Assembly (NCBI GenBank): GCA_963761335.1
Contig: CAVXGR010000004.1
Coordinates: forward strand, 134,992 to 198,991
DNA length: 64,000 nucleotides
DNA from: an uncultured delta proteobacterium
GTDB lineage: Bacteria > Desulfobacterota > Binatia > HRBIN30 > BPIQ01
Direction: 5' to 3'
Below are positions 10,520 through 59,636 of this stretch, piece after piece (the stretch's first letter is position 1; every line of letters begins with the position of its first letter). The notes below the pieces were generated by a model that saw only the letters and a program-made list of their open reading frames with translations, searched no databases and was not told the DNA's origin. The translations under genes were made by a program, and so were the position numbers.

Positions 10520-10532
10520 CCGGGAGACTTTG

Positions 10533-11039
10533 GCCCGCGGGCCGGCGGAAGCGTCTTGCCCGGGTCGTGGGAGAGCGTAGAAGCGCCGTCCCGGCGCTTT
10601 CTGAAGCGGCGAGACGCCGCTTCTACTTTGCCCGCAGGCCGGCGGAAGCGTCTTGCCCGGGTCGTGGGAGAGCGTAGAAGCGCCGTCCCGGCGCTTTCCG
10701 AAGCGGCGAGACGCCGCTTCTACTTTGCCCGCAGGCCGGCGGAAGCGTCTTGCCCGGGTCGTGGGAGAGCGTAGAAGCGCCGTCCCGGCGCTTTCCGAAG
10801 CGGCGAGACGCCGCTTCTACTTTGCCCGCAGGCCGGCGGAAGCGTCTTGCCCGGGTCGTGGGAGAGCGTAGAAGCGCCGTCCCGGCGCTTTCCGAAGCGG
10901 CGAGACGCCGCTTCTACTTTGCCCGCGGGCCGGCGGAAGTGTCTTGCCCGGGTCGTGGGAGAGCGTAGAAGCGCCAAGCGCCGTCCCGGCGCTTTCCGAA
11001 GCGGCGAGACGCCGCTTCTACTTTGCCCGCAGGCCGGCG
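10533..11039. repeat. Tandem array of 5 x 97-bp units, each containing an inverted GTAG-REP doublet (BIME-like)
   Basis: Units start at 10533, 10630, 10727, 10824 and 10921 (the last has a 7-bp AAGCGCC duplication); each holds GTAGAAGCGCCGTCCCGGCGCTT and AAGCGGCGAGACGCCGCTTCTAC. Confidence 0.93.
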
Positions 11040-16117: not shown

Positions 16118-16238
16118 CCCGGTTCTCATTCCCGGTTCTCATGCCGTCGTTTTCCATTGTTCTGCAGGCCTCATCAGGGCCCGCGGCTGTCAGAGCGAAT
16201 GGAAGACGACGGCATGAGAACCGGGAATGAGAACTGGG
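16118..16238. repeat. Family P1 copy 2 (opposite orientation to copy 1)
   Basis: GGTTCTCATTCCCGGTTCTCATGCCGTCGTTTTCCATT ... AATGGAAGACGACGGCATGAGAACCGGGAATGAGAAC. Confidence 0.9.
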
Positions 16239-16323
16239 AATGGGAGCCCGCCCCACCACCCCACCACCTTGTGAAGCGGCGCCTGGGAAACGAACGGCGG
16301 GATTGATAGAACTGGAAGCCATC

Positions 16324-20037: not shown

Positions 20038-20180
20038 CATTTTCGGTTCTCATTCCCGGTTCTCGTTCCGTCGTTTTCCATTTCGCTCTGACAGCCGCGA
20101 AGGCCCACAGCTGAGCCTGTCTCACGCGGCTCGCAGAACAATGGAAAACGACGGAACGAGAACCGGGAATGAGAACCGGG
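20038..20180. repeat. Family P1 copy 3
   Basis: CGGTTCTCATTCCCGGTTCTCGTTCCGTCGTTTTCCATT ... AATGGAAAACGACGGAACGAGAACCGGGAATGAGAACCG. Confidence 0.92.
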
Positions 20181-20274
20181 AACGGCGAAATAGAGTATGA
20201 GGGTTCCTTGATCGTCTCGCCCCGCAGCCGGCCCCCAATCTCGCCATGCCTTGATTCGCCGGGGCGGCTGTTGG

Positions 20275-29868: not shown

Positions 29869-31042
29869 TCACACCTGCGGCAGCTTGAGAACCCGCTTGG
29901 AGATGATGTTTCGCTGAATCTCGGAAGATCCAGAGAAGATCGTCTCGGCGCGCGACCAGAGGAACTCGCGCGCCCAGACGACCTCGCTGCGCGCCGCAGG
30001 GCTCTGGCGCAGCGAGCTGAGCGCCCGGGCCGAGCAGGTCGATGGCGGTCTCGCGGAAGCGGCGGTCGAACTCGCTCCAGAAGATCTTCTCGATGGACGC
30101 CTCCGGTCCCGGCACCTTGCCGTCGGCGAGGTTGGCGAGCATGCGGATGCCGTTGGCGCGCAGCACCTCGTTCTCGACCAGCAGGCGTGCCAGCTTCTCA
30201 CGCACGGCGCTGCCGCCGCGGCCGAGCTCGCGGCAGGTCGCGGCGAGCTGCGCCAGATCGCGGCTGAAACGCGCCGCGAAGGAGAGCGAGGAGGCGCCGC
30301 GCTCGAAGGCGAGCACGGTCATGGCGATGCGCCAACCCTCGCCGATCTCGCCCAGCAGGTTCTCGCGGGGGACGCGAGCGTCCTCGAAGAACACCTCGCC
30401 GAACTCGCTCTCGCCGGTGATCTGGCGCAGCGGGCGCACGGTCACCCCTGGAGTGTCGAGCTTGCAGAGAATGAAGGAGATGCCGCCGTAGCGGTCGGCG
30501 GCGTCGGTACGTGCCAGGACGAAGATCCAGTCGGCCCAGGGGCCGAAGGTAGTCCAGATCTTCTGGCCGTTGAGGACGAAGGAGTCGCCGTCGATGCGGG
30601 CGCTGGTGCGCAGCGCCGCGAGGTCGCTGCCGGCGCCGGGCTCGCTGAACCCCTGGCACCAGATCTCGTCGGCGGCGAGCATCGGCGGGATGAAGCGGCG
30701 GCGCTGCTCCTCGGTGCCGTGATGGATCAGCGCCGGGCCGAGGAGCGAGATGCCCAGCAGGTTGAGAACCTGTGGCGCGTCGGCGCGCGCCGTCTCCTCG
30801 TCGAAGATCGATTCCTCGACCTCGCCGGCGCCGCGCCCACCCCACTCCACCGGCCAGCCCATGCCCAGATAGCCGGCGGCGTGCAGCTTGCGCTGCCACT
30901 CGCGGCGCAGCTCCATGAGGCTATCCTCGGTGTGCTTGGGGTCGCGCACGTCCTCGCGCCAAGACGGCGGCAGGTTGTCGCGCAGTCAGCCGCGCAGCTG
31001 GTCGCGAAACTGCTCGTGCCTTTCCGACAGATGTAGATCCAT
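29869..31042 (-). pseudogene. Acyl-CoA dehydrogenase (alpha-type), in-frame TGA at 30986-30988 and +1 frameshift near 30014
   Basis: MDLHLSERHEQFRDQLRG*LRDNLP; WCQGFSEPGAGSDLA, NGQKIWT, GEGWRIAMTVLAFER; tail TIFSGSSEIQRNII lies in another frame. Confidence 0.85.
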
Positions 31043-31130
31043 GCGAATTGCATGGGGGGCGCACGGACCGGTCAAGCCACCTGGGGGGCGGGGGCCCCAA
31101 CAGCCCCAACACGACCCCAGGTGGCGCCGA

Positions 31131-31260
31131 AGGTTGTTGGGTTGTTACGTTGTTGGTTGTTGGTAAGAAGGGGTGAACTGATCTAACAACCTAACAACGT
31201 AGCAACCAACAACCGTGCAGCCAACGGGCATCCCGGGAAACCTCAAGACCCAACACCTCG
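31131..31260. repeat. Inverted octamer-array element (E2)
   Basis: GGTTGTTG-type left arm and CCTAACAA-type right arm; extended homology to 59436-59636. Confidence 0.85.
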
Positions 31261-31301
31261 TCCCTTGATCCGCTTCCGCCCGGCAGGTAGCTATTTCCGC
31301 C

Positions 31302-32183
31302 ATGAAGGAAGACAACGGATTTCTGCGCTTTCGGGGGACTCCCGGCTACATTGCCGCCGGGCCGTTGATCGATGCGGTCAACTGCGCCATTGCCCTGCAG
31401 CGGCCGCTGCTGCTCAAGGGGGAGCCGGGCACGGGGAAGACGGTGTTGGCCGGTCACGTCGCCGCGGGGTTGGGCATGCCGATGCTGTCGTGGCACATCA
31501 AGTCGACCACCAAGGCCGCCGACGGCCTCTACGTCTACGACACCGTGCAGCGGCTCAACGACAGCCGCTTCGGCACCGGGGACGTCGCCGATATCCGCCG
31601 CTACATCAAGCTCGGACCGCTGGGAGAGTCGTTCGCCGCCGAGGAGCGTCAGGTGCTGCTCATCGACGAGATCGACAAGGCCGATCTCGAGTTTCCCAAC
31701 GACCTCCTGCGCGAGCTCGACGAGATGCGCTTCTCCATCTCCGAGACCGGCGAGGAGGTCGTCGCCAAGCATCGCCCGGTGGTGCTGATCACCTCCAATA
31801 ACGAGAAGGAGCTCCCGGACGCCTTCCTGCGCCGCTGCATCTTCCACTACATCGAGTTCCCCGACCCGGCGCTGATGCGCCAGATCGTCGACGTGCACCA
31901 CCCCCACCTCGACACCAAGCTCCTCGACCAGGTGCTGATCAAGTTCTACTGGCTGCGCGAGCAGGGCGACCTGCGCAAGAAGCCATCGACATCCGAGCTG
32001 GTCGACTGGATCGCGGCGCTGCTGCGCTCGGGCGTGAGCCTCGACAAGGTCGAGACCCACATCCCCTTCGTCGGCGCCCTCCTGAAGAAGGAGCAGGACG
32101 TCGATGCCCTGCAGCGCTACAACGCCGCCGACGGCCGCTACCCGAAGAGCTGGGCCGATCTCGGCCCCCGGTACAACCAGTGA
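31302..32183 (+). CDS. MoxR-like AAA+ ATPase
   Basis: GEPGTGKT Walker A, LLIDEIDKAD Walker B, ITSNNEKELPDAFLRRC. Confidence 0.95.
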   Translation: MKEDNGFLRFRGTPGYIAAGPLIDAVNCAIALQRPLLLKGEPGTGKTVLAGHVAAGLGMPMLSWHIKSTTKAADGLYVYDTVQRLNDSRFGTGDVADIRRYIKLGPLGESFAAEERQVLLIDEIDKADLEFPNDLLRELDEMRFSISETGEEVVAKHRPVVLITSNNEKELPDAFLRRCIFHYIEFPDPALMRQIVDVHHPHLDTKLLDQVLIKFYWLREQGDLRKKPSTSELVDWIAALLRSGVSLDKVETHIPFVGALLKKEQDVDALQRYNAADGRYPKSWADLGPRYNQ

Positions 32184-32190
32184 AGAAGAA

Positions 32191-32303
32191 GGTTGTTAGG
32201 TTGTTGAGTTGTTGGTTGTTGGGTTCCCCCGGCCCCGCCCTTTCAACTAGCAACGCAAACAACCTAGCAACCTAACAGCCTAACAACTCAACAACCCAAC
32301 AAC
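32191..32303. repeat. Inverted octamer-array element (E3)
   Basis: GGTTGTTAGGTTGTTGAGTTGTTGG ... CAACCTAGCAACCTAACAGCCTAACAACTCAACAACCCAACAAC directly before ATG 32304. Confidence 0.85.
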
Positions 32304-33491
32304 ATGTTTCTCGATCTCTTCTACGGATTGCGCAGCGAAGGGGTTCCGCTTGCCATTCAGGAATGGCAGACGTTCCTGCGGGCTCTCGAGGAAGGGTTGC
32401 ACGGCTCGAGCCTGCTGCGCTTCTACCATCTCGGGCGCGCCTGCCTGATCAAGAGCGAGACCTACTTCGACGCCTACGACCGGGTTTTCGCGCGGGTCTT
32501 CAAGGGCGTCGAGGGGGCGCTCGGCGACGACGTGACCGAGAAGGTCCTCGAGTGGCTGCGCGATTCGAAGAACTTCCCGAACCTGTCGCCGGAGGATCTG
32601 GCGAAGCTCGAGAGCCTGTCGTCGGATGAGCTCATGCGCCGCTTTCTCGAGACCCTCGAGAAGCAGACGGAACGCCACGACGGCGGCGACCGCTGGGTGG
32701 GCACCGGCGGCAAGTCGCCCTTCGGTCACGGCGGACAGCACCCGACCGGCATTCGCGTCGGTGGCCCGGCGAAGAGCCGCTCGGCGATGAAGGTGGCCGA
32801 GGAGCGCCGCTTCAAGAACTACCGCACCGACCTCTCTCTCGACCTGCGGCAGATGCGCGTCGCTCTGCGGCGCCTGCGCCAGCTGACCCGCAGCGGCGAC
32901 GCCACCGAGCTCGACCTCGACACCACCATCGACGAGACCTGCAAGAACGCCGGCGAGATCGAGCTGGTGTTTCGCCCGCCGCGGCGCAACGACGTGCGCG
33001 TGCTGCTGCTCATGGACGTGGGGGGTACCATGGACCCGTACTTCGAGCCGGTGAGTCAGCTGCTGACCGCCCTGCACGAGGAGCACAGCCTGCGCGACCT
33101 GCAGCCGTACTACTTCCACAACTGCATCTACGACGCCATCTACACCCAGGCGCGCATGATGCGCGAGGACGCCGTGCCCACGGGCGACGTCCTGCGGCGC
33201 CTGGATCACCGCTGGAAGGCGATCGTCGTCGGCGATGCCGCCATGCACCCGGCGGAGCTACTGGAGCCGTACGGCAACATCGATCCGCGCCGCACCGCGC
33301 CGACCCCGGGGGTCGTCTGGCTGCGGCGGATCGCCGAGCACTTCGACCGCAGCGTCTGGTTGAATCCGGAGGACCGTCCCTACTGGGAGACCCACACCAC
33401 CCGCGTCGTGCGGCGCCTCTTCCCGATGTTTCATCTCAGCGTCGATGGCTTAACGGAGGCGCTCAGGGCGCTGGTCGGGGCGCGGATCTGA
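32304..33491 (+). CDS. VWA/CoxE-like protein, partner of MoxR
   Basis: LLLMDVGGTMDP MIDAS-like motif, YYFHNCIY, VVGDAAMHP, WLNPE. Confidence 0.9.
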   Translation: MFLDLFYGLRSEGVPLAIQEWQTFLRALEEGLHGSSLLRFYHLGRACLIKSETYFDAYDRVFARVFKGVEGALGDDVTEKVLEWLRDSKNFPNLSPEDLAKLESLSSDELMRRFLETLEKQTERHDGGDRWVGTGGKSPFGHGGQHPTGIRVGGPAKSRSAMKVAEERRFKNYRTDLSLDLRQMRVALRRLRQLTRSGDATELDLDTTIDETCKNAGEIELVFRPPRRNDVRVLLLMDVGGTMDPYFEPVSQLLTALHEEHSLRDLQPYYFHNCIYDAIYTQARMMREDAVPTGDVLRRLDHRWKAIVVGDAAMHPAELLEPYGNIDPRRTAPTPGVVWLRRIAEHFDRSVWLNPEDRPYWETHTTRVVRRLFPMFHLSVDGLTEALRALVGARI

Positions 33492-33496
33492 AGTTG

Positions 33497-33592
33497 CTCG
33501 GTTTCTCAGTGGCTAGGTTCCTCGGTATCTCAGTGGTTCGGTTCCTCGGTGGCTCAGTGGCTCAGTTTCTCGGTGGCTCAGTGGTTCGGTGG
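33497..33592. repeat. 12 degenerate octamers (consensus CTCRGTGG), left arm of E4
   Basis: ctcggttt|ctcagtgg|ctaggttc|ctcggtat|ctcagtgg|ttcggttc|ctcggtgg|ctcagtgg|ctcagttt|ctcggtgg|ctcagtgg|ttcggtgg. Confidence 0.92.
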
Positions 33593-33992
33593 CTGGGGAT
33601 CGCCTGCGAGTGGGACTGGCGGCGATTTGACGGGCCGCGACGTGGCGCCGGAGGCCGCCGATGAGCCTCCGCGTGGTTTCGGATAAGGCATAGAGGGATT
33701 GGAGCTCGGCCGAGGTGATGTAGGATTGGTCCGCGGCGATGTAGAGCTGGGTCTCCAGCTCGCCGAGCGAAGCGATGGCAATCGTCAGGAAGCGGCAGAA
33801 CTCGGCTCGGACTCCGCGTTCGAATCCTTCAGCGATATTAGACATCACCGAAATCGCCGCGCGGCGAATCTGATCGCGGAGGGGGAAGTCTACCCGAAAC
33901 CCTGACTGGCGAGAGCAGGAGTACACAGAGTTGCAGAGATGTCTTGCTGCCTGCCAGGCATGCAACTCCTCGAATTTACTGATTGCGGCCAT
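33513..33992 (-). CDS. Four-helix-bundle protein (23S rRNA IVP / TIGR02436-type, Avd-related fold)
   Basis: FEELHAWQAA, LRDQIRRAAISVMSNIAEGFER, FLTIAIASLGELETQLYIAADQSYI; AGGAGG RBS. Confidence 0.93.
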   Translation of the reverse strand: MAAISKFEELHAWQAARHLCNSVYSCSRQSGFRVDFPLRDQIRRAAISVMSNIAEGFERGVRAEFCRFLTIAIASLGELETQLYIAADQSYITSAELQSLYALSETTRRLIGGLRRHVAARQIAASPTRRRSPATEPLSHRETEPLSHRGTEPLRYRGT

Positions 33993-34017
33993 CCATAGCC
34001 TCCTTCTCTTCTCACCG

Positions 34018-34105
34018 TCACCGAGCCACTGAGTCACCGAGCCACTGAGTCACCGAGTCACTGAGTCACCGAGTCACTGAGTCACTGAGTCACTGAGCCA
34101 CTGAG
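34018..34105. repeat. 11 octamers (YCACYGAG), right arm of E4, inverted relative to 33497-33592
   Basis: tcaccgag|ccactgag|tcaccgag|ccactgag|tcaccgag|tcactgag|tcaccgag|tcactgag|tcactgag|tcactgag|ccactgag. Confidence 0.93.
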
Positions 34106-34604
34106 TCACGCCGTAGCAGCGGCTTTCTTCGCAGGCTGATGCACGATCACTCTGGGCGGCTTTTCCAAGGCCGGCTTGGGGTCGGCGAGCAGGCGCTGCG
34201 CTTCTTCGCGGTCGGCGGCGTTCATCGCTCGGGTCGAGGTGCAGAACTCGACGAGGATGCCGTTGGGGTCGACGACGTAGATCGAGCGGCACCAGCCGTG
34301 ATCGATCTCGCTGGCGTTGAGGTCGTGGTCGAGCCAGCGGCGCAGGCGCGCCTGGAGGTCGTCCAGGCTCGAGGCGCGGAAGGCGATGTGGTTGACCCAG
34401 ATCGGCAGCCCCATCCCGGTGGAGATGGCCGGCGACAGGAGGAGGGGATGCTGTCGTCGTGCAGGTCCCAGAAGGCGATGTACTCGTCCTTGCTGATCTC
34501 GTAGAAGACATGCTTGGCCAGCCACCGCCCTCGGTGGGCGCGGTCACCACCTTGAGAGCTGAAGATGTGTGTAAAGGTAGCGAGGCGGCGTGATGAAAAC
34601 CCAT
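34106..34604 (-). pseudogene. VOC/glyoxalase family gene with several frameshifts/deletions in the 5' half
   Basis: MGFHH.., KVVTAPTEGG, AKHVFYE..IAFWDLHDD and WVNHIAF..DHGWCRSIYVVDPNGILVEFC occur in three different frames. Confidence 0.75.
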
Positions 34605-34680
34605 GGTTCCCTCTTTCTTCTCCGCGGAGGCTATTTCCGCCGGGGCGGGTTTTCAAGGCGATTTGCGCCGCCCCCGACTC

Positions 34681-35250
34681 TCAGGCACGGCGGACGCAGA
34701 GGATCATGCCGCTGGCCTCGGCCAGCTCGGCGCTCTGCAGCTGCAGGTGATCGAGCAACGTCTTGCGAACCCGAGCGGTGTGCTGCCGGTGCTCGTCGTT
34801 GATCCAGGTCGATGGCGTCATGTCGTCGACCAGCAGCAGGCCCTGGGGCCGCAGCGCCGCGATGGTGCGCTCGAGCCCGTACCACTTGCCTCCCTGAGCG
34901 TCGGCGAAGATGAGGTCGAAGCGCCCCAGCTCGTCGAGCAGGGTGAGGATGTCGCCGGTGCGCAGCGACACCGACTCCGGCCAGGCCTCGCGGCGCGCGA
35001 TGGCCGCCGTCGCCGGATCGAGCTCGACGGAGATCAGCGAGACCTCGGAGCGGTCGCGCAGGCCGTGCACCAGCCACGAGGTGCCGACGCCGGCGCCGGA
35101 GCCGATCTCGAGAATGCGTCCGCCCGCGGGCACCGCCGCGGCGAGAACCGCCAGGAGGCGGCCGACCCCGGGCTCGCAGGACAGCGAGAAGTCGGCGTCA
35201 CGGGCCCTCTGCTCAGCGCGGGCGACAATCTCCGGCAGAGGGTGACCCAT
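34681..35250 (-). CDS. Class I SAM-dependent O-methyltransferase
   Basis: RILEIGSGAGVGT, SVELD, FDLIFADA, GLLLVDD. Confidence 0.9.
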   Translation of the reverse strand: MGHPLPEIVARAEQRARDADFSLSCEPGVGRLLAVLAAAVPAGGRILEIGSGAGVGTSWLVHGLRDRSEVSLISVELDPATAAIARREAWPESVSLRTGDILTLLDELGRFDLIFADAQGGKWYGLERTIAALRPQGLLLVDDMTPSTWINDEHRQHTARVRKTLLDHLQLQSAELAEASGMILCVRRA

Positions 35251-35324
35251 GGCCGCGGAGACTAGGACGGCCGCCGGCACAACGCCAGCAAATCGTCGAG
35301 ACTTCGTGTATAGAGTCACGGCGA

Positions 35325-35936
35325 ATGGAAGAGAGGGAATCGCGCCGGCACTTCTCGATGATCCGCAGCTTTCGGCTGGCGGATGTGTTCACCATCGCCA
35401 ACGGGTTCTGCGGCGTCGCCGCTGTCTTCCGCGCCATGCGCTTTCTCGAGGACGGTGGCGTTCGTCATCTCTACGAGGCCGTGGGGTTGATCGCCGCCGC
35501 CATCGCCGCCGATTTCCTCGACGGGCGGGTGGCGCGCTGGCGGCACCAGCCATCGCCGATGGGCCGCGAGATGGATTCGCTGGCGGACGTCATCTCCTTC
35601 GGCGTGGCGCCGGCGAGCCTCGCCTTCGCCGTCGGTCTCAACACGGTTCTCGATCAGCTGCTGCTCATGTACTTCGTGGCCTGCGGCCTCAGCCGCCTGG
35701 CGCGCTACAACATCACCGCCGAGGATCTCGCCGCCGGTAGCGACAAGGTGGAGTACTACGAGGGGATGCCGATTCCCACGAGCTTCCTGCCGCTGCTGCT
35801 CCTTCTCCTCGCCTACGCCGCCGATATCCTGCTGCCGGTGCGCACCCTCGGCGTCCGCTGGCATCTTGCCTCTCTGCTCTTCGTCGTTTCCGGAAGCTTG
35901 ATGATCAGCAAGACGCTGCGCATACCGAAGCCGTAA
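35325..35936 (+). CDS. pssA: CDP-diacylglycerol--serine O-phosphatidyltransferase (CDP-alcohol phosphotransferase)
   Basis: DFLDGRVAR..GREMDSLADVISFGVAP, RLARYN, GMPIP. Confidence 0.88.
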   Translation: MEERESRRHFSMIRSFRLADVFTIANGFCGVAAVFRAMRFLEDGGVRHLYEAVGLIAAAIAADFLDGRVARWRHQPSPMGREMDSLADVISFGVAPASLAFAVGLNTVLDQLLLMYFVACGLSRLARYNITAEDLAAGSDKVEYYEGMPIPTSFLPLLLLLLAYAADILLPVRTLGVRWHLASLLFVVSGSLMISKTLRIPKP

Positions 35937-35967
35937 GCGCGCCTGGCGCGTTTACGGCTTCGGTATG

Positions 35968-36086
35968 CGGTTCTCGAGTTGTGCAGTTGGAGGGTTTGCG
36001 AGTTCAGAAGCGGCGGTTGCCGGGTACGGATTGTCGATGCGCAACCCGACAACCCGCGAACCCGCCAACCGGGAACTTGCAATTGC
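35968..36086. repeat. Inverted octamer-array element (E5)
   Basis: cggttctc|gagttgtg|cagttgga|gggtttgc|gagttcag ... gcaacccg|acaacccg|cgaacccg|ccaaccgg. Confidence 0.75.
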
Positions 36087-36119
36087 TTCGAGCCCCGCAG
36101 ACAGCCAGAATCTCCATTC

Positions 36120-36704
36120 ATGCGCAGCGTCTGTGTCTTTTGCGGCTCCAGCCCGGGGGCTCGGCCCCTGTATGCGGAGACGGCGCGGGCCCTCGCCGCC
36201 TCGCTGGCGCGGCGCGGGATGGCGCTCGTCTACGGCGGCGGCAAGGTCGGGCTCATGGGGCTGCTCGCCGACGCCTTGCTCGAGCGCGGCGGCCGCGCGG
36301 TCGGTGTGATCCCCGAGAGCCTGCGCTCCCTCGAGGTGGCGCACGAGGGGCTGACGGAGCTCCACGTGGTGGAGAGCATGCACGCGCGCAAGGCGATGAT
36401 GGCCGATCTCGCCGATGGCTTCGTCGCCCTGCCGGGCGGCCTCGGCACCCTCGAGGAGCTCCTCGAGATCACCACTTGGGCACAGCTCGGCTTGCACACC
36501 AAGCCGATCGGTGTCCTCAACGCCGGTGGCTACTTCGCGCCCCTGCTTTCGCTGCTCGACCACGCCGTCGAGGAACGCTTCCTGCGTCCCGAGCACCGCC
36601 GCCTCCTCCTGGTCGCCACCTCCGCCGACGAGTTGCTCGAGGCGATGGGAGAATTCAAAGCGCCCGAGAGCGGCGGCAAATGGATCGATCGGGAGCAGAC
36701 GTAG
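36120..36704 (+). CDS. LOG family (TIGR00730) nucleotide phosphoribohydrolase
   Basis: VCVFCGSS, VYGGGKVGLMG, MHARK, LPGGLGTLEE. Confidence 0.95.
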   Translation: MRSVCVFCGSSPGARPLYAETARALAASLARRGMALVYGGGKVGLMGLLADALLERGGRAVGVIPESLRSLEVAHEGLTELHVVESMHARKAMMADLADGFVALPGGLGTLEELLEITTWAQLGLHTKPIGVLNAGGYFAPLLSLLDHAVEERFLRPEHRRLLLVATSADELLEAMGEFKAPESGGKWIDREQT

Positions 36705-36705
36705 T

Positions 36706-36817
36706 AAGTTGACGAGTTTGTGAGTTGTGGAGTTGTCGAGTTAGGCTAGTCAGTAGGACATTGTCGGATTCACAAGAACCCGGTAACCCTCAACTCGGTA
36801 ACCCGCCAACCTGCAAA
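36706..36817. repeat. Inverted octamer-array element (E6)
   Basis: aagttgac|gagtttgt|gagttgtg|gagttgtc|gagttagg ... agaacccg|gtaaccct|caactcg|gtaacccg|ccaacctg. Confidence 0.75.
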
Positions 36818-36830
36818 GCGGAGCGAAGCG

Positions 36831-39065
36831 ATGATTGAGACGAAATACCGCATCTGCCCTCTGTGCGAGGCGACCTGTGGGCTGGAGATCCGTGTCGCCG
36901 GCGGAGAGGTCGCGGCGATTCGCGGCGATGATGCCGATGTCTTCAGCGGCGGCTTCATCTGTCCGAAGGGCGTGGCGCTGGCGCAGCTGCACGCGGATCC
37001 CGACCGCCTGCGCCACCCCCTGGTTCGCCGCGACGGCGTCCTCGTCCCGGCGTCCTGGGAGGATGCGTTCGCCGAGGTGGAGCGCCGCCTGCTGCCGATC
37101 GTCGAGGAGCACGGTCGCGACGCGGTCGCCGTCTACCTGGGGAACCCCAACGTCCACAACCTCTCGCTGGCCATCTACGGTCAGGTGCTGCTGCGCACCC
37201 TGCGCACCACCAATATCTTCACCGCCAGCACCGTGGATCAGATTCCGAAGCAGCTGGCCTCCGGGCTGATGTTCGGGACCTTCACCAGCGTTGCGGTACC
37301 CGACATCGACCACACCGACTACCTGCTCATGCTGGGCGCCAATCCGCTCGATTCGAACGGCAGCTTGTGGACCGTTCCGGATTTTCCCGGGCGGCTGCGC
37401 GCCCTGCAGAAACGCGGCGGCCGCTGCGTCGTCGTCGACCCGCGTCGCAGCCGCACGGCCGAGGCGGCGGACCGGCATCTGTTCATTCGCCCCGGAACCG
37501 ACGCGTTGTTTCTGATGTCGCTGGTGCATGTGCTTTTCGCCGAGGGCCTGGTGGCCGCCGGGCGCCTGGCGGAGCAGACCAACGGCCTTGCCGAGGTCGA
37601 GGCGGCGGCAGGCGATTTCTCCCCGGCGCAGGTGGCGTCTGTCTGCGGCATTCCGGCTGCAGCGATCGGCGAGGTGGCGCGAGAGCTGGCGGCGGCGAAG
37701 CGCGCCGTCGTCTACGGCCGCATCGGCACCTGCACCCAGGAGTTCGGGACCCTGGCGAGCTGGCTCGTGGATGTGCTCAACCTGCTCACCGGCAACCTCG
37801 ATCGGCAAGGCGGCGCCATGTTTCCGCTGGCGGCGGGCTTCGCGGCCAACAGCCGCGGCGAGGAGGGGGTCGGCCGCGGCGTTCCCCTGGGCCGCCGGCG
37901 CAGCCGCGTGCGAAATTGCCCCGAGGTGCAGGGGGAGCTGCCGGTTGCCTGTCTCGCCGAGGAGATCGAGACGCCGGGGTCGGGGCAGGTGCGCGCCCTG
38001 ATCACCATCGCCGGCAATCCGGCGCTGAGCACGCCCAACAGCGGCCGCCTGCAGCGCGCCCTCGCCTCGCTCGAGTTCATGCTGAGCCTCGACATCTATC
38101 TGAACGAGACGGCGCGCCATGCCGACGTGATTCTCCCCGGTCTCTCGCCGCTCGAGGAGAGTCACTACGATGCGGTCTTCCCGCAGTTCGGCTATCGCAA
38201 CGCGGCGCGCTTCTCGCCCTCGGTCTTCGCCGCCCCCGCGGATCGCCCGGCAGAGTGGCAGACTCTCCTCCGCCTGGCGGCGATTCTCTCCGGCCAGGGC
38301 GCCGGCGCCGACATCGCCGCCCTGGACGACTTCGTCGCCATGTCGCAGGCGCAGGCGGCGATCGCCAGTCCGTCTTCGCCCGTCTTCGGCCGCGACGCCG
38401 GCGAGATCCTCGCGGCGCTGAGCCCGCGCCGCGGACCCGAGCGCATCGTCGACCTCGCTTTGCGCTCCGGTCCCTACGGAGATGGGTTCGGGGCACGCCC
38501 GGGTGGCCTCAGTCTCGCGGCTCTGGAGAGCCAGCCACACGGAATCGATCTGGGTCCGCTGCAGCCGCGCCTTCCCGGGGCGCTGCGCACCCCGTCGGGG
38601 AAGATCGAGCTGGCGCCAAAGCCCTTGCTCGACGACGTGCCGCGACTGCGCCAGCGGCTGCAGCAGCGCCGCGACGAGGGCATGCTCCTCGTCGGCCGGC
38701 GGCACCTGCGCACCAACAACTCCTGGATGCACAACCTGCCGCTGCTGGCCGGCGGCCGGCCGCTGTGCACGCTGCAGGTGCATCCCGACGATGCGGCGCG
38801 CCTCGGCTTGCGCGAGGGCGAGCTGGCGCGAGTGGCGTCGCGCGCTGGCCGAGTCGAGGTGCCGGTCGAGCTCACCGACCGCATCATGCCGGGCGTGGTC
38901 AGCATGCCCCACGGCTGGGGTCACGCCCAGGAGGGTGTCCGCCTGCACCTCGCGTCCAGCCGTCCGGGCGCCAACAGCAACGAGCTTGCCGACGAGGAGG
39001 CTCTCGATCCGCTCTCGGGCAACGCCGTGCTGAACGGTATCCCGGTCACCGTCGAGCCCGCCTGA
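36831..39065 (+). CDS. Molybdopterin-dependent oxidoreductase (DMSO reductase/MopB superfamily)
   Basis: CPLCEATC..CPKG Fe-S motif, GANP, VVDPRRS, RPGTD, ADVILP, NSWMHN, HPDDAARLG. Confidence 0.93.
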   Translation: MIETKYRICPLCEATCGLEIRVAGGEVAAIRGDDADVFSGGFICPKGVALAQLHADPDRLRHPLVRRDGVLVPASWEDAFAEVERRLLPIVEEHGRDAVAVYLGNPNVHNLSLAIYGQVLLRTLRTTNIFTASTVDQIPKQLASGLMFGTFTSVAVPDIDHTDYLLMLGANPLDSNGSLWTVPDFPGRLRALQKRGGRCVVVDPRRSRTAEAADRHLFIRPGTDALFLMSLVHVLFAEGLVAAGRLAEQTNGLAEVEAAAGDFSPAQVASVCGIPAAAIGEVARELAAAKRAVVYGRIGTCTQEFGTLASWLVDVLNLLTGNLDRQGGAMFPLAAGFAANSRGEEGVGRGVPLGRRRSRVRNCPEVQGELPVACLAEEIETPGSGQVRALITIAGNPALSTPNSGRLQRALASLEFMLSLDIYLNETARHADVILPGLSPLEESHYDAVFPQFGYRNAARFSPSVFAAPADRPAEWQTLLRLAAILSGQGAGADIAALDDFVAMSQAQAAIASPSSPVFGRDAGEILAALSPRRGPERIVDLALRSGPYGDGFGARPGGLSLAALESQPHGIDLGPLQPRLPGALRTPSGKIELAPKPLLDDVPRLRQRLQQRRDEGMLLVGRRHLRTNNSWMHNLPLLAGGRPLCTLQVHPDDAARLGLREGELARVASRAGRVEVPVELTDRIMPGVVSMPHGWGHAQEGVRLHLASSRPGANSNELADEEALDPLSGNAVLNGIPVTVEPA

Positions 39066-52610: not shown

Positions 52611-52635
52611 GTCGCCAGCGTCGGCGCCGGCGGGT

Positions 52636-52896
52636 GGATCAGTGGCTCAGTTTCTCGGTGGCTCGGTCATCGGGTTGATGGGTTTGGGGGGGCATTCTCA
52701 TTCTCAATTCTCATTCTCATCCCGTCGTTTTCCATTGTTCTGAACGCCGGGGAATGTCGCCGCGCCCGCCGGAAAGCACCGCGCCGATCAGAGAAATGGA
52801 AAACGACGGGATGAGAATGAGAATTGAGAATGAGAATGGCACCCATCAACCCGGTAACCCATCAACCCGGTAACCCGGTAACCGAGTCACCGATCC
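52636..52896. repeat. Composite: inverted octamer arms (E7) enclosing P1 copy 4
   Basis: Left atcagtgg|ctcagttt|ctcggtgg|ctcggtca|tcgggttg|atgggttt; right acccatca|acccggta|acccatca|acccggta|acccggta|accgagtc|accgatcc. Confidence 0.88.
52693..52838. repeat. Family P1 copy 4, perfect 44-bp arms
   Basis: 52693-52736 is the exact reverse complement of 52795-52838, including the expanded ATTCTC words. Confidence 0.93.
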
Positions 52897-59435: not shown

Positions 59436-59636
59436 GGGTTGTTGGGTTGTTGCGTTGTTGGTTGTTGGTGAAAAGGGGTGATGACCTAACAACCTAACAA
59501 CCTAACAACCTAACAACCTAACAACCTAACAACCTAACAACCTAACAACGTAGCAGCCAACAACCCGCCCGCAGCCAACGGGCATCCCGTTGTGGCAAAG
59601 CCCGCCTAGCGCCCTCACACCCAACACCTCAACACC
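59436..59636. repeat. Inverted octamer-array element (E8) with 8 perfect ACCTAACA copies
   Basis: 59484-59547 = (ACCTAACA)x8; flanks homologous to E2. Confidence 0.93.

Follow-up and report, generated by a model that had tools for sequence, protein, structure and literature searches.

A four-helix-bundle gene framed by inverted arrays of tandem octamers: a candidate intervening-sequence-type cassette between protein-coding genes

What kind of element is a small gene that lies alone between two mirror-image arrays of tandem octamers and, together with them, fills the space between the stop codons of two convergent protein-coding genes? This arrangement occurs at 33493-34109 of a 64,000-nucleotide (nt) stretch of DNA (hereafter the window; contig C4, positions 134992-198991) from the genome of an uncultured delta proteobacterium (G000; 6.26 Mb, 67.8% G+C), where two arrays of tandem 8-nt units form an inverted pair with one open reading frame (ORF) between them, encoding a four-helix-bundle protein of the S23p or intervening-sequence protein (IVP) family. 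We consider it very probable that the gene and its arms constitute one acquired unit and likely that the constraint falls on arm pairing, given that both arms change in step at an insertion site in the dnaE2 genes of related genomes and keep to a narrow length (median 4.4 units; see below). That the whole is a gene cassette of the intervening-sequence (IVS) type, set between protein-coding genes rather than in rRNA, is the reading that we cautiously favor; the four-helix-bundle gene and its two complementary arms of short words form one heritable, transferable unit.

Tandem Repeats Finder describes the left array as 8.2 copies of period 8 (70% matches) or 4.1 copies of period 24 (85%, score 126) and the right array as 11.6 copies of period 8 (84%) or a repeat of period 16 (96%, score 151). 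In register, 12 units can be counted in the left arm, six of them exactly CTCRGTGG, and 11 exact YCACYGAG units in the right arm, in agreement with the 12 left and 11 right inverted octamers reported by a first-pass annotation of this DNA. The best inverted pair (33505-33591 versus 34019-34105) spans 87 nt with 78% complementarity and 427 nt in between, and the PF05635 gene is the only gene that it encloses. ORF coordinates likewise bear out the placement of the cassette between two convergent genes: it begins 2 nt past the stop codon of the VWA gene and occupies the entire interval up to the TGA of the VOC gene, which is contained in the outermost unit of the right array (Table 1). The same annotation had the arrays enclose a gene of about 480 bp. 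The length and the solitude of the gene stand, but its enclosure is incomplete, as its last ~25 codons and its TAG stop are encoded by the left array (array-encoded C terminus, …TEPLSHRETEPLSHRGTEPLRYRGT), which in the sense of the gene is the C-rich 3' arm. In the same sense the right array is the 5' arm, with the units GTGACTCA/GTGGCTCA. The excess of A/T-ending codons over the neighbors, previously noticed by eye, is evident in the third-position G+C content (GC3), which is 0.73 for the cassette gene, 0.77 for the VOC gene, 0.88 for a methyltransferase gene, 0.91 for the VWA gene, and 0.93 for an AAA gene. An Rfam scan of 30500-37000 with E values up to 1 matched no family, and a promoter and terminator scan of 33300-34700 found no sigma-70-like promoter and nothing else of relevance.

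Table 1. Coordinates of the cassette, its parts, its neighbors, and its paralog within dnaE2 (window positions unless a contig is given)
Feature	Position	Strand	Description	Basis
Left array	33493-33594		12 degenerate octamers, CTCRGTGG type	Tandem Repeats Finder and inverted-repeat search
Right array	34017-34109		11.6 octamers (GTCACYGA)	Tandem Repeats Finder and inverted-repeat search
Four-helix-bundle gene (23S_rRNA_IVP/TIGR02436)	33513-33992	-	159 codons plus stop, 480 nt; ATG 33992-33990, stop 33515-33513	
PF05635-matching part	33657-33971	-	Profile positions 1-105 of 106	
Shine-Dalgarno AAGGAGG	33999-34005	-	6 nt ahead of the ATG	Read from the sequence
VWA (CoxE-like) gene	32304-33491	+	TGA 33489-33491	ORF
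VOC/glyoxalase-family gene	34106-34525	-	TGA 34106-34108; upstream, co-oriented neighbor of the cassette gene	ORF
dnaE2-embedded cassette (L001/L047)	G000:C17:200595-201361			
Paralog gene within it	C17:200953-201326			

The product of the cassette gene (for which 33513-33995, starting one codon ahead of the ATG, was used as the query reference) matches PF05635 with E = 3.5e-31 and 108 bits (cut-off, 33.8) and TIGR02436 with 102 bits (cut-off, 24). Its PF05635-matching part carries a Q-x2-R-x3-S-x3-N-x2-E-G stripe and a conserved E, and the R-x3-S-x3-N-x2-E stripe on helix 2 that is conserved in the family is present. Among 35 order-level sequences, the cassette protein included, five positions do not vary (Q34, R37, S41, E48, and E71), and four more (N45, A47, G49, and R52) are kept in at least 90%; from their 3- to 4-residue spacing, these residues should share one face of helix 2. 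The structure model is a confident four-helix bundle (pLDDT, 97.3), whose nearest solved structures are XCC0516 (2GSC; TM, 0.92; 36% identity) and BT_0352 (2RLD; TM, 0.85). It also matches the Avd protein of the diversity-generating retroelement (DGR) of a Bordetella phage (4DWL; TM, 0.81) and DGR ribonucleoprotein structures, so that the Avd-like fold expected from the first reading is confirmed for the predicted model. The 2GSC and 2RLD entries have five chains each, like the Avd pentamer. Between orthologs at a locus shared by two genomes of the order (G050 and G010), dN/dS is 0.053/0.695, indicating that the gene is under purifying selection.

Inverted word-arms bracket five of the five PF05635 matches of G000 (500 nt of flank read), and a profile search through all six frames of G000 returned only these five and a bAvd gene. 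The inverted-arm score at the cassette locus is 88.5; among 500 random places of the same genome scored with the same geometry, 21 reached 32 or more, and the maximum was 39.5. PF05635 was found in 44 of the 52 genomes of the order that were searched. From more than 200 matches we took 72 loci (the best per genome and further listed ones from 10 genomes), 68 of which had enough flank, and 54 of these have an arm score of at least 32, against 21/500 for a null drawn from G000 only. The arm units vary from locus to locus, even inside one genome. The upstream neighbor is co-oriented with the gene in 40 of the 44 order-level loci that could be called by GC3, and the downstream neighbor is co-oriented in 28 of 39.

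The survey was extended across phyla with one genome per species and a profile built from eight sequences of the order. More than 600 loci matched, and the best 80 were taken, which are the nearest relatives of the query profile and not a random sample of the family. They belong to Cyanobacteria, Alpha-, Beta-, and Gammaproteobacteria, Bacteroidota, Firmicutes, Acidobacteria, Planctomycetes, Chloroflexi, others, and one archaeal bin. With at least 200 nt on both sides, 76 loci remained, in 14 phylum-level groups. The arm scores of 140 shifted controls have a 95th percentile of 24.0 and a maximum of 27; 71 of the 76 loci exceed that percentile, and 66 score above all 30 shuffles. The association of inverted arrays with PF05635 paralogs, on which the first-pass annotation had staked its proposal, is thus seen in this genome, in its order, and across phyla. 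The best period among the 71 armed loci is 7 in 64, 8 in 5, and 11 in 2, and the median copy number of the gene-adjacent arrays is 4.4 on the upstream side (interquartile range, 3.9 to 5.0; 64 arrays) and 4.3 on the downstream side (60 arrays). With ~12 octamers per arm, the cassette of the window lies at the upper end, as an expanded octamer-period member versus the usual ~4.4 heptamers. Cultured carriers in this set include Microcoleus asticus, Pseudoxanthomonas wuyuanensis, and Mesorhizobium sp. ISC25, whose locus L102 has six perfect AGTAGGGG units.

We then considered whether the gene and its arms travel together. The VWA gene is present in 38 of 40 relatives, and all matches end at the VWA stop codon, while VOC homologs lie on other contigs or far off. 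No empty VWA-VOC junction was found among the 40 relatives because the VOC gene sits elsewhere in all of them, and conserved vertical synteny, the outcome that would have spoken against a mobile unit, was not seen at this junction. The 3' flank of the VWA gene was read in 12 relatives (that of G029 ends with its contig and was unused). In G004 (L015, contig C16) a different cassette with heptamer GGTCTCT arms begins exactly at the VWA stop and is followed by a P450-like gene; its gene is opposite in orientation relative to VWA and encodes a protein 54% identical to that of G000. The same VWA-P450 pair in G016 (L008, contig C43) is separated by a ~38-nt spacer that still resembles the 5' arm of G004, the two genomes forming a filled and near-empty pair at this junction. 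G014 has a gene-less GGGGTTA/TAACCCC pair with a loop of ~200 nt after the VWA stop. G002, which belongs to the same family as G000 and is its nearest relative with the VWA gene, has a plain spacer followed by another convergent gene and no array, and seven other relatives have no array directly at the VWA stop.

Comparisons between cassettes delimit the same unit. Those of G004 and G034 have genes 78% identical over 254 nt and are 84 to 90% alike in both arms, while their flanks are unrelated; two paralogous cassettes of G010, 3 kb apart, are alike only in gene and arms; and at the orthologous locus of G050 and G010 identity is 85% across all 1515 nt. The GC3 of the gene, the breakpoints at the VWA stop, the location of VOC homologs elsewhere, and the array-free G002 indicate that the lineage of G000 gained the present copy by acquisition. 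The proposal that gene and arms are the loaded unit of a repeat-associated element hence gains from paralog enrichment, from the unrelated contexts, and from gene-less copies of the arms. The arm family of this cassette (searched as three units with at most two mismatches) has 188 matches in G000, many at gene-less loci; the same pattern has none in four genomes of the same order.

A second canonical paralog of G000 lies inside the gene for an error-prone DNA polymerase (dnaE2; NF004225, 1144 bits against a cut-off of 939, with DNA polymerase III alpha Pfam domains), between its helix-hairpin-helix and OB domains. This site is loaded in nine genomes of three families (G000, G021, G050, G034, G033, G046, G004, G014, and G019), and a tenth, G039, is similar but broken by masked bases. 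The inserted gene always lies in the +2 frame relative to dnaE2, whose own frame is stop-free across the entire inserted ORF in 9/9 and remains open to the RTLADY motif in 8/9, G019 breaking in its greatly expanded arrays; in G034 the inserted gene has its own TAG and the dnaE2 frame is still open. The same frame is open in 16 of 61 non-embedded genes, and synonymous-codon shuffles of the embedded genes give open-frame probabilities of 0.07 to 0.41 each, the nine being kin and not independent trials, with proteins only 60 to 72% identical. At the same site G001 and G002 have a plain linker, and G013, G016, and G017 have gene-less in-frame arrays. The units at this shared site (GGTTGTTA/TAACAACC, GGCTGTTA/TAACAGCC, GGCGGTTA/TAACCGCC, and GGGGTTA/TAACCCC) differ with both arms in step, so that complementarity is maintained. 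The case adds a rare example of a selfish gene maintained within a host gene whose own frame stays open over the insert. Differing gene-less units also lie in frame at two fixed dnaE2 sites (L049 in G013, L051 in G016, L050 in G017, and L054 in G019); the arrays of G019 have expanded to several hundred bases of repeats; and in several genomes the adjacent Pro-Leu-Phe codons of dnaE2 resemble the repeat unit.

Complementary termini that can form a stem around the ORF emerge from both the repeat search and the predicted fold. A 631-nt sense RNA folds, with the arms paired, at -282.4 kcal/mol, versus -228.7 ± 8.7 for 20 shuffles (z = -6.2), in keeping with the earlier suggestion that the arms could pair in RNA. 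Since an inverted repeat reads identically from both strands, each cassette has a single binary property, namely, which arm is G-rich. The G-rich arm is 5' in 62 of the cross-phylum loci, with 5 C-rich and 4 neutral; in 18 of the order-level loci tested, with 3 C-rich (by one base each) and 1 neutral; and in 47 of the adjacent inverted 7/8-mer pairs of G000, with none C-rich and 3 neutral. A separate family of 13-mer-armed hairpins in G000 (CGGTTCTCATCCC/GGGATGAGAACCG) has the opposite polarity, with the C-rich arm first in 16 of 16 pairs, and these hairpins look like copies of one element. They occur in the window at 994-1135, 16118-16242, 20044-20184, and 52693-52838, and complete copies flank a divergent IVP-like gene at C17:87212-87478. 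Two causes of the G-rich-first rule were tried and set aside: provision of stop codons has a modest effect (1.68 of the 5'-arm frames with a stop versus 1.33 in shuffles), and avoidance of Rho loading, an attractive possibility, would be at odds with the identical polarity of cyanobacterial cassettes, since cyanobacteria are not known to have Rho.

Under the IVS-type reading, the cassette gene would have no promoter of its own and would depend for its transcription on read-through from the VOC gene, which has the same orientation. In the resulting RNA, the 5' arm, richer in G, could pair with the 3' arm, richer in C, as an imperfect duplex of ~90 bp with the gene in its loop. As in the 23S rRNA IVS, this duplex would be the working part, recognized by RNase III or in some other structure-dependent step through which the cassette becomes uncoupled from its host transcript. 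The ring-forming protein would act on nucleic acid in the upkeep or spread of the cassette, possibly by binding the periodic arms. That the pairing acts at the RNA level with processing of the RNase III type has, by analogy, a chance somewhat below even; such processing is plausible but cannot be obligatory. Binding of the arm repeats by the cassette protein is more doubtful still.

Several observations weigh against this reading. The open dnaE2 frame implies that the transcript is translated through, so that excision or cutting cannot be obligatory. No excess of wobble-type mismatches on the sense side was found at 22 loci (24 sense versus 37 antisense), and at the present locus the counts are 2 and 9; pairing could accordingly be kept at the DNA level or by copying between arms. 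Among the listed sequencing runs, no RNA run contains 32900-34600. Arms of this type also surround an unrelated cargo and are thus not specific to the IVP family: both GxxExxY genes of G000 (PDDEXK_3, TIGR04256; PD-(D/E)XK fold) have inverted short-word arms, with scores of 72.5 and 47, and represent a second cargo type of the same architecture. The arms of some cassettes are found nowhere else in the genome that carries them, as is the case for the AAGGTCG arms of G038; the notion of one master gene per repeat family, which fits G000 but not this G038 cassette, was not kept as a general rule. The six-frame profile search detected no decayed gene remnants in the gene-less hairpins of G000. Finally, the polarity rule is unaccounted for by an IVS-type model.

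The GxxExxY genes lie at G000:C5:114214-114908 and C17:188695-189336, and the C5 unit is followed in tandem by a second, gene-deleted copy. Contigs from four DNA runs over 32900-34600 are short and break at the arrays, and a contig joint skipping 33493-34580 was disregarded, having only 21 letters on one side.

How far do other explanations account for these data? One of them takes the arms as ordinary intergenic hairpin repeats of the host (REP-, STRR-, or insulator-like), in whose loops small selfish genes land or survive. G000 has material for it, with 299 merged arrays of period 7 or 8 found by a genome-wide Tandem Repeats Finder run, belonging to a few unit families (among them AACAACCT, 52; ACCGAGCC, 37; and AACAACC, 33), and 50 adjacent inverted pairs with up to 800 nt between them, most of whose loops are short and gene-less. 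The expansion of the cassette arm family in G000 and its absence from four relatives, the gene-less arrays at the dnaE2 site of G013, G016, and G017, the use of such arms by two unrelated cargo families, and the lack of gene remnants in gene-less hairpins all fit the same explanation, as does the position of rRNA intervening sequences at helix tips in the available text of a preprint on rRNA insertions in bacteria of the candidate phyla radiation (CPR). We nevertheless consider it unlikely, as the arms accompany the gene into unrelated contexts, similar arms occur on related genes in different genomes (G004 and G034), the G038 arms are unique within their genome, and insertion specific to loops would be needed everywhere to yield 71 armed loci out of 76 across phyla. 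An equally small share of our belief goes to the possibility that the arms act as DNA, through a cruciform or single-stranded hairpin for recombination, transposition, or precise deletion, with RNA pairing incidental, in parallel to REPIN/RAYT elements or integron attC sites. The missing sense-strand wobble bias, the concerted change of whole arrays (as copying between arms would give), the differing orientation of the gene relative to VWA in G000 and G004 (as inversion would allow), the PD-(D/E)XK nuclease fold of the second cargo, and the patchy presence at the dnaE2 and VWA sites speak for it. A DNA hairpin should, however, be indifferent to which side is G-rich, yet the polarity is 62:5 across phyla and 47:0 in G000; the co-orientation of the upstream neighbor at 40 of 44 loci points to transcription, and the cassette contains no recombinase.

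Two further explanations can be given little weight. Neutral slippage, or a contingency (phase-variation) tract that flanks the gene by chance, would agree with the variable array length (12 units per arm here versus mostly ~4.4) and with the differing heptamer number among Coxiella strains (PMC4990558, in the part of that report drawn on here); but very large enrichment over controls, arms that are complementary and change in step, and a narrow distribution of arm lengths make it very improbable. Hardly credible is a role of the gene as an Avd-type accessory factor of a DGR, with the repeats unrelated to it. The fold resembles 4DWL at a TM of 0.81 and DGR ribonucleoprotein structures are matched, but the genome has its own bAvd (PF22296; E = 4.7e-14) directly ahead of its only RVT_1 gene, that bAvd has no inverted arms (score, 19.5), and with E values up to 0.001 the cassette gene hits PF05635 but not bAvd. 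The cassette is on C4 and the sole reverse transcriptase match of the genome is on contig C18, consistent with the first-pass annotation, which had found no reverse transcriptase in the window. The bAvd-like gene and RVT_1 at G000:C18:1172117-1174443 (L176:618-2943) are probably a DGR.

The IVS-type reading is best judged against the systems that the cassette resembles. The IVS in helix 45 of the Coxiella burnetii 23S rRNA has a 28-bp terminal stem that is cut by RNase III, and a variable number of tandem GACAGAT heptamers precedes its S23p ORF (Warrier 2016, PMC4990558, available text). Like the ORF-bearing 23S rRNA IVS of Coxiella, Leptospira, and others as described there, the cassette has an S23p/IVP ORF looped by terminal inverted repeats, and the IVS, which has no transposase, is regarded as selfish. 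Unlike the IVS, the cassette lies between two protein-coding genes, so that insertion into an rRNA helix, which defines the IVS, is lacking; its arms are octamer arrays of 90 to 100 nt instead of a 28-bp stem, and it has a strong ribosome-binding site. Cutting by RNase III is documented for the IVS and hypothetical for the cassette.

Intergenic arrays of tandem 7-mers are a second point of comparison. In the accessible text of Rehm et al. (2015, PMC4692102), Xanthomonas GGGAATC arrays form 70 to 75 convergent pairs near stop codons, with ~4 units preferred, and Nostoc has GGGGA(C/T)T arrays; in both, convergent pairs with the two arrays on opposite strands are frequent, the arrays touch or overlap stop codons, and it is the sense strand that is G-rich downstream of the stop. 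Units of 7 to 8 nt, a convergent pair, abutment on a stop codon, and the G-rich strand after the stop are all found at the cassette. The described arrays are presented there as quadruplex forming, and that text mentions no gene in the loop, whereas the cassette octamers have no G-runs and the pair encloses a gene. TAACTGA repeats have also been described (MacGregor 2015, as far as its available text goes).

The cyanobacterial STRR repeats are comparable tandem repeats. In REPIN/RAYT systems a gene present once lies between inverted copies of a short, lineage-specific palindromic repeat, which also occurs without the gene at scattered places in the same genome. The cassette shares with these a gene between inverted copies of a repeat family that is also scattered gene-less, but its arms are tandem arrays of 7- to 8-nt words, and its cargo matches only PF05635 (GxxExxY in other cassettes) and not a Y1 (IS200/IS605-like) transposase. 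It has the four-helix-bundle fold of bAvd (4DWL and 8UBE; TM, 0.81) but belongs to a separate Pfam family (bAvd being PF22296) and has no adjacent reverse transcriptase. Members of the family have also been found wedged in unrelated operons with the same R-S-N-E motif, 18 IVP genes being reported inside cas loci, for example, between cmr3 and cmr2 (Zhang, Doak and Ye 2014, PMC3936711); they were interpreted as CRISPR associated, and the available text of that paper does not mention flanking inverted arrays. Full-text literature searches turned up no account of IVP genes lying between inverted tandem arrays other than in rRNA, and the assumption that the element was undescribed has thus held in the texts searched. 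The package of gene and mirror repeats, recurrent across phyla, seems to be undescribed outside rRNA.

The remaining features of the window are noted for completeness. The VOC/glyoxalase gene is apparently split over two frames (ORFs at 34222-34656 and 34106-34525), with a frame switch near 34440-34450 in a C-rich run, which reflects either a frameshift in the gene or an error of assembly; its GC3 of 0.77 is low as well. Inverted octamer arrays without a gene (GGTTGTT/AACAACC and others) lie at 31132-31214, 32190-32303, 59436-59565, and 52633-52667 with 52848-52883, the first two flanking the AAA (MoxR-like) gene that immediately precedes the VWA gene. Tandem units of 97 nt (5.2 copies, 96% identity) occupy 10527-11039.

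A wider reading would join the IVP cassettes and the parallel GxxExxY cassettes in one unrecognized class of mobile hairpin elements. In it, the arms may bind a ring-shaped cargo protein with one ~7-nt word per subunit, which would explain the modal 4 to 5 words per arm; gene-less heptamer and octamer hairpins (STRR, GGGAATC arrays, and the pairs of G000) may be non-autonomous relatives; the classic 23S rRNA IVS may be only the special case inserted in rRNA; and the G-rich-5' rule may reflect how the elements are made or read. All parts taken together, we think this improbable. The IVP/S23p family is very large and has been of unknown function since the 1990s, and the heptamer tandem repeats of bacteria are likewise unexplained. 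Taken together, IVP genes and heptamer repeats turn two puzzles into one testable system, a link supported by the nearly constant framing of the gene by arms, by arms that evolve in step, and by their fixed polarity. For genome annotation, such cassettes would explain odd C-terminal repeat tails, "CRISPR-associated" IVP genes, and breaks of synteny at stop codons.

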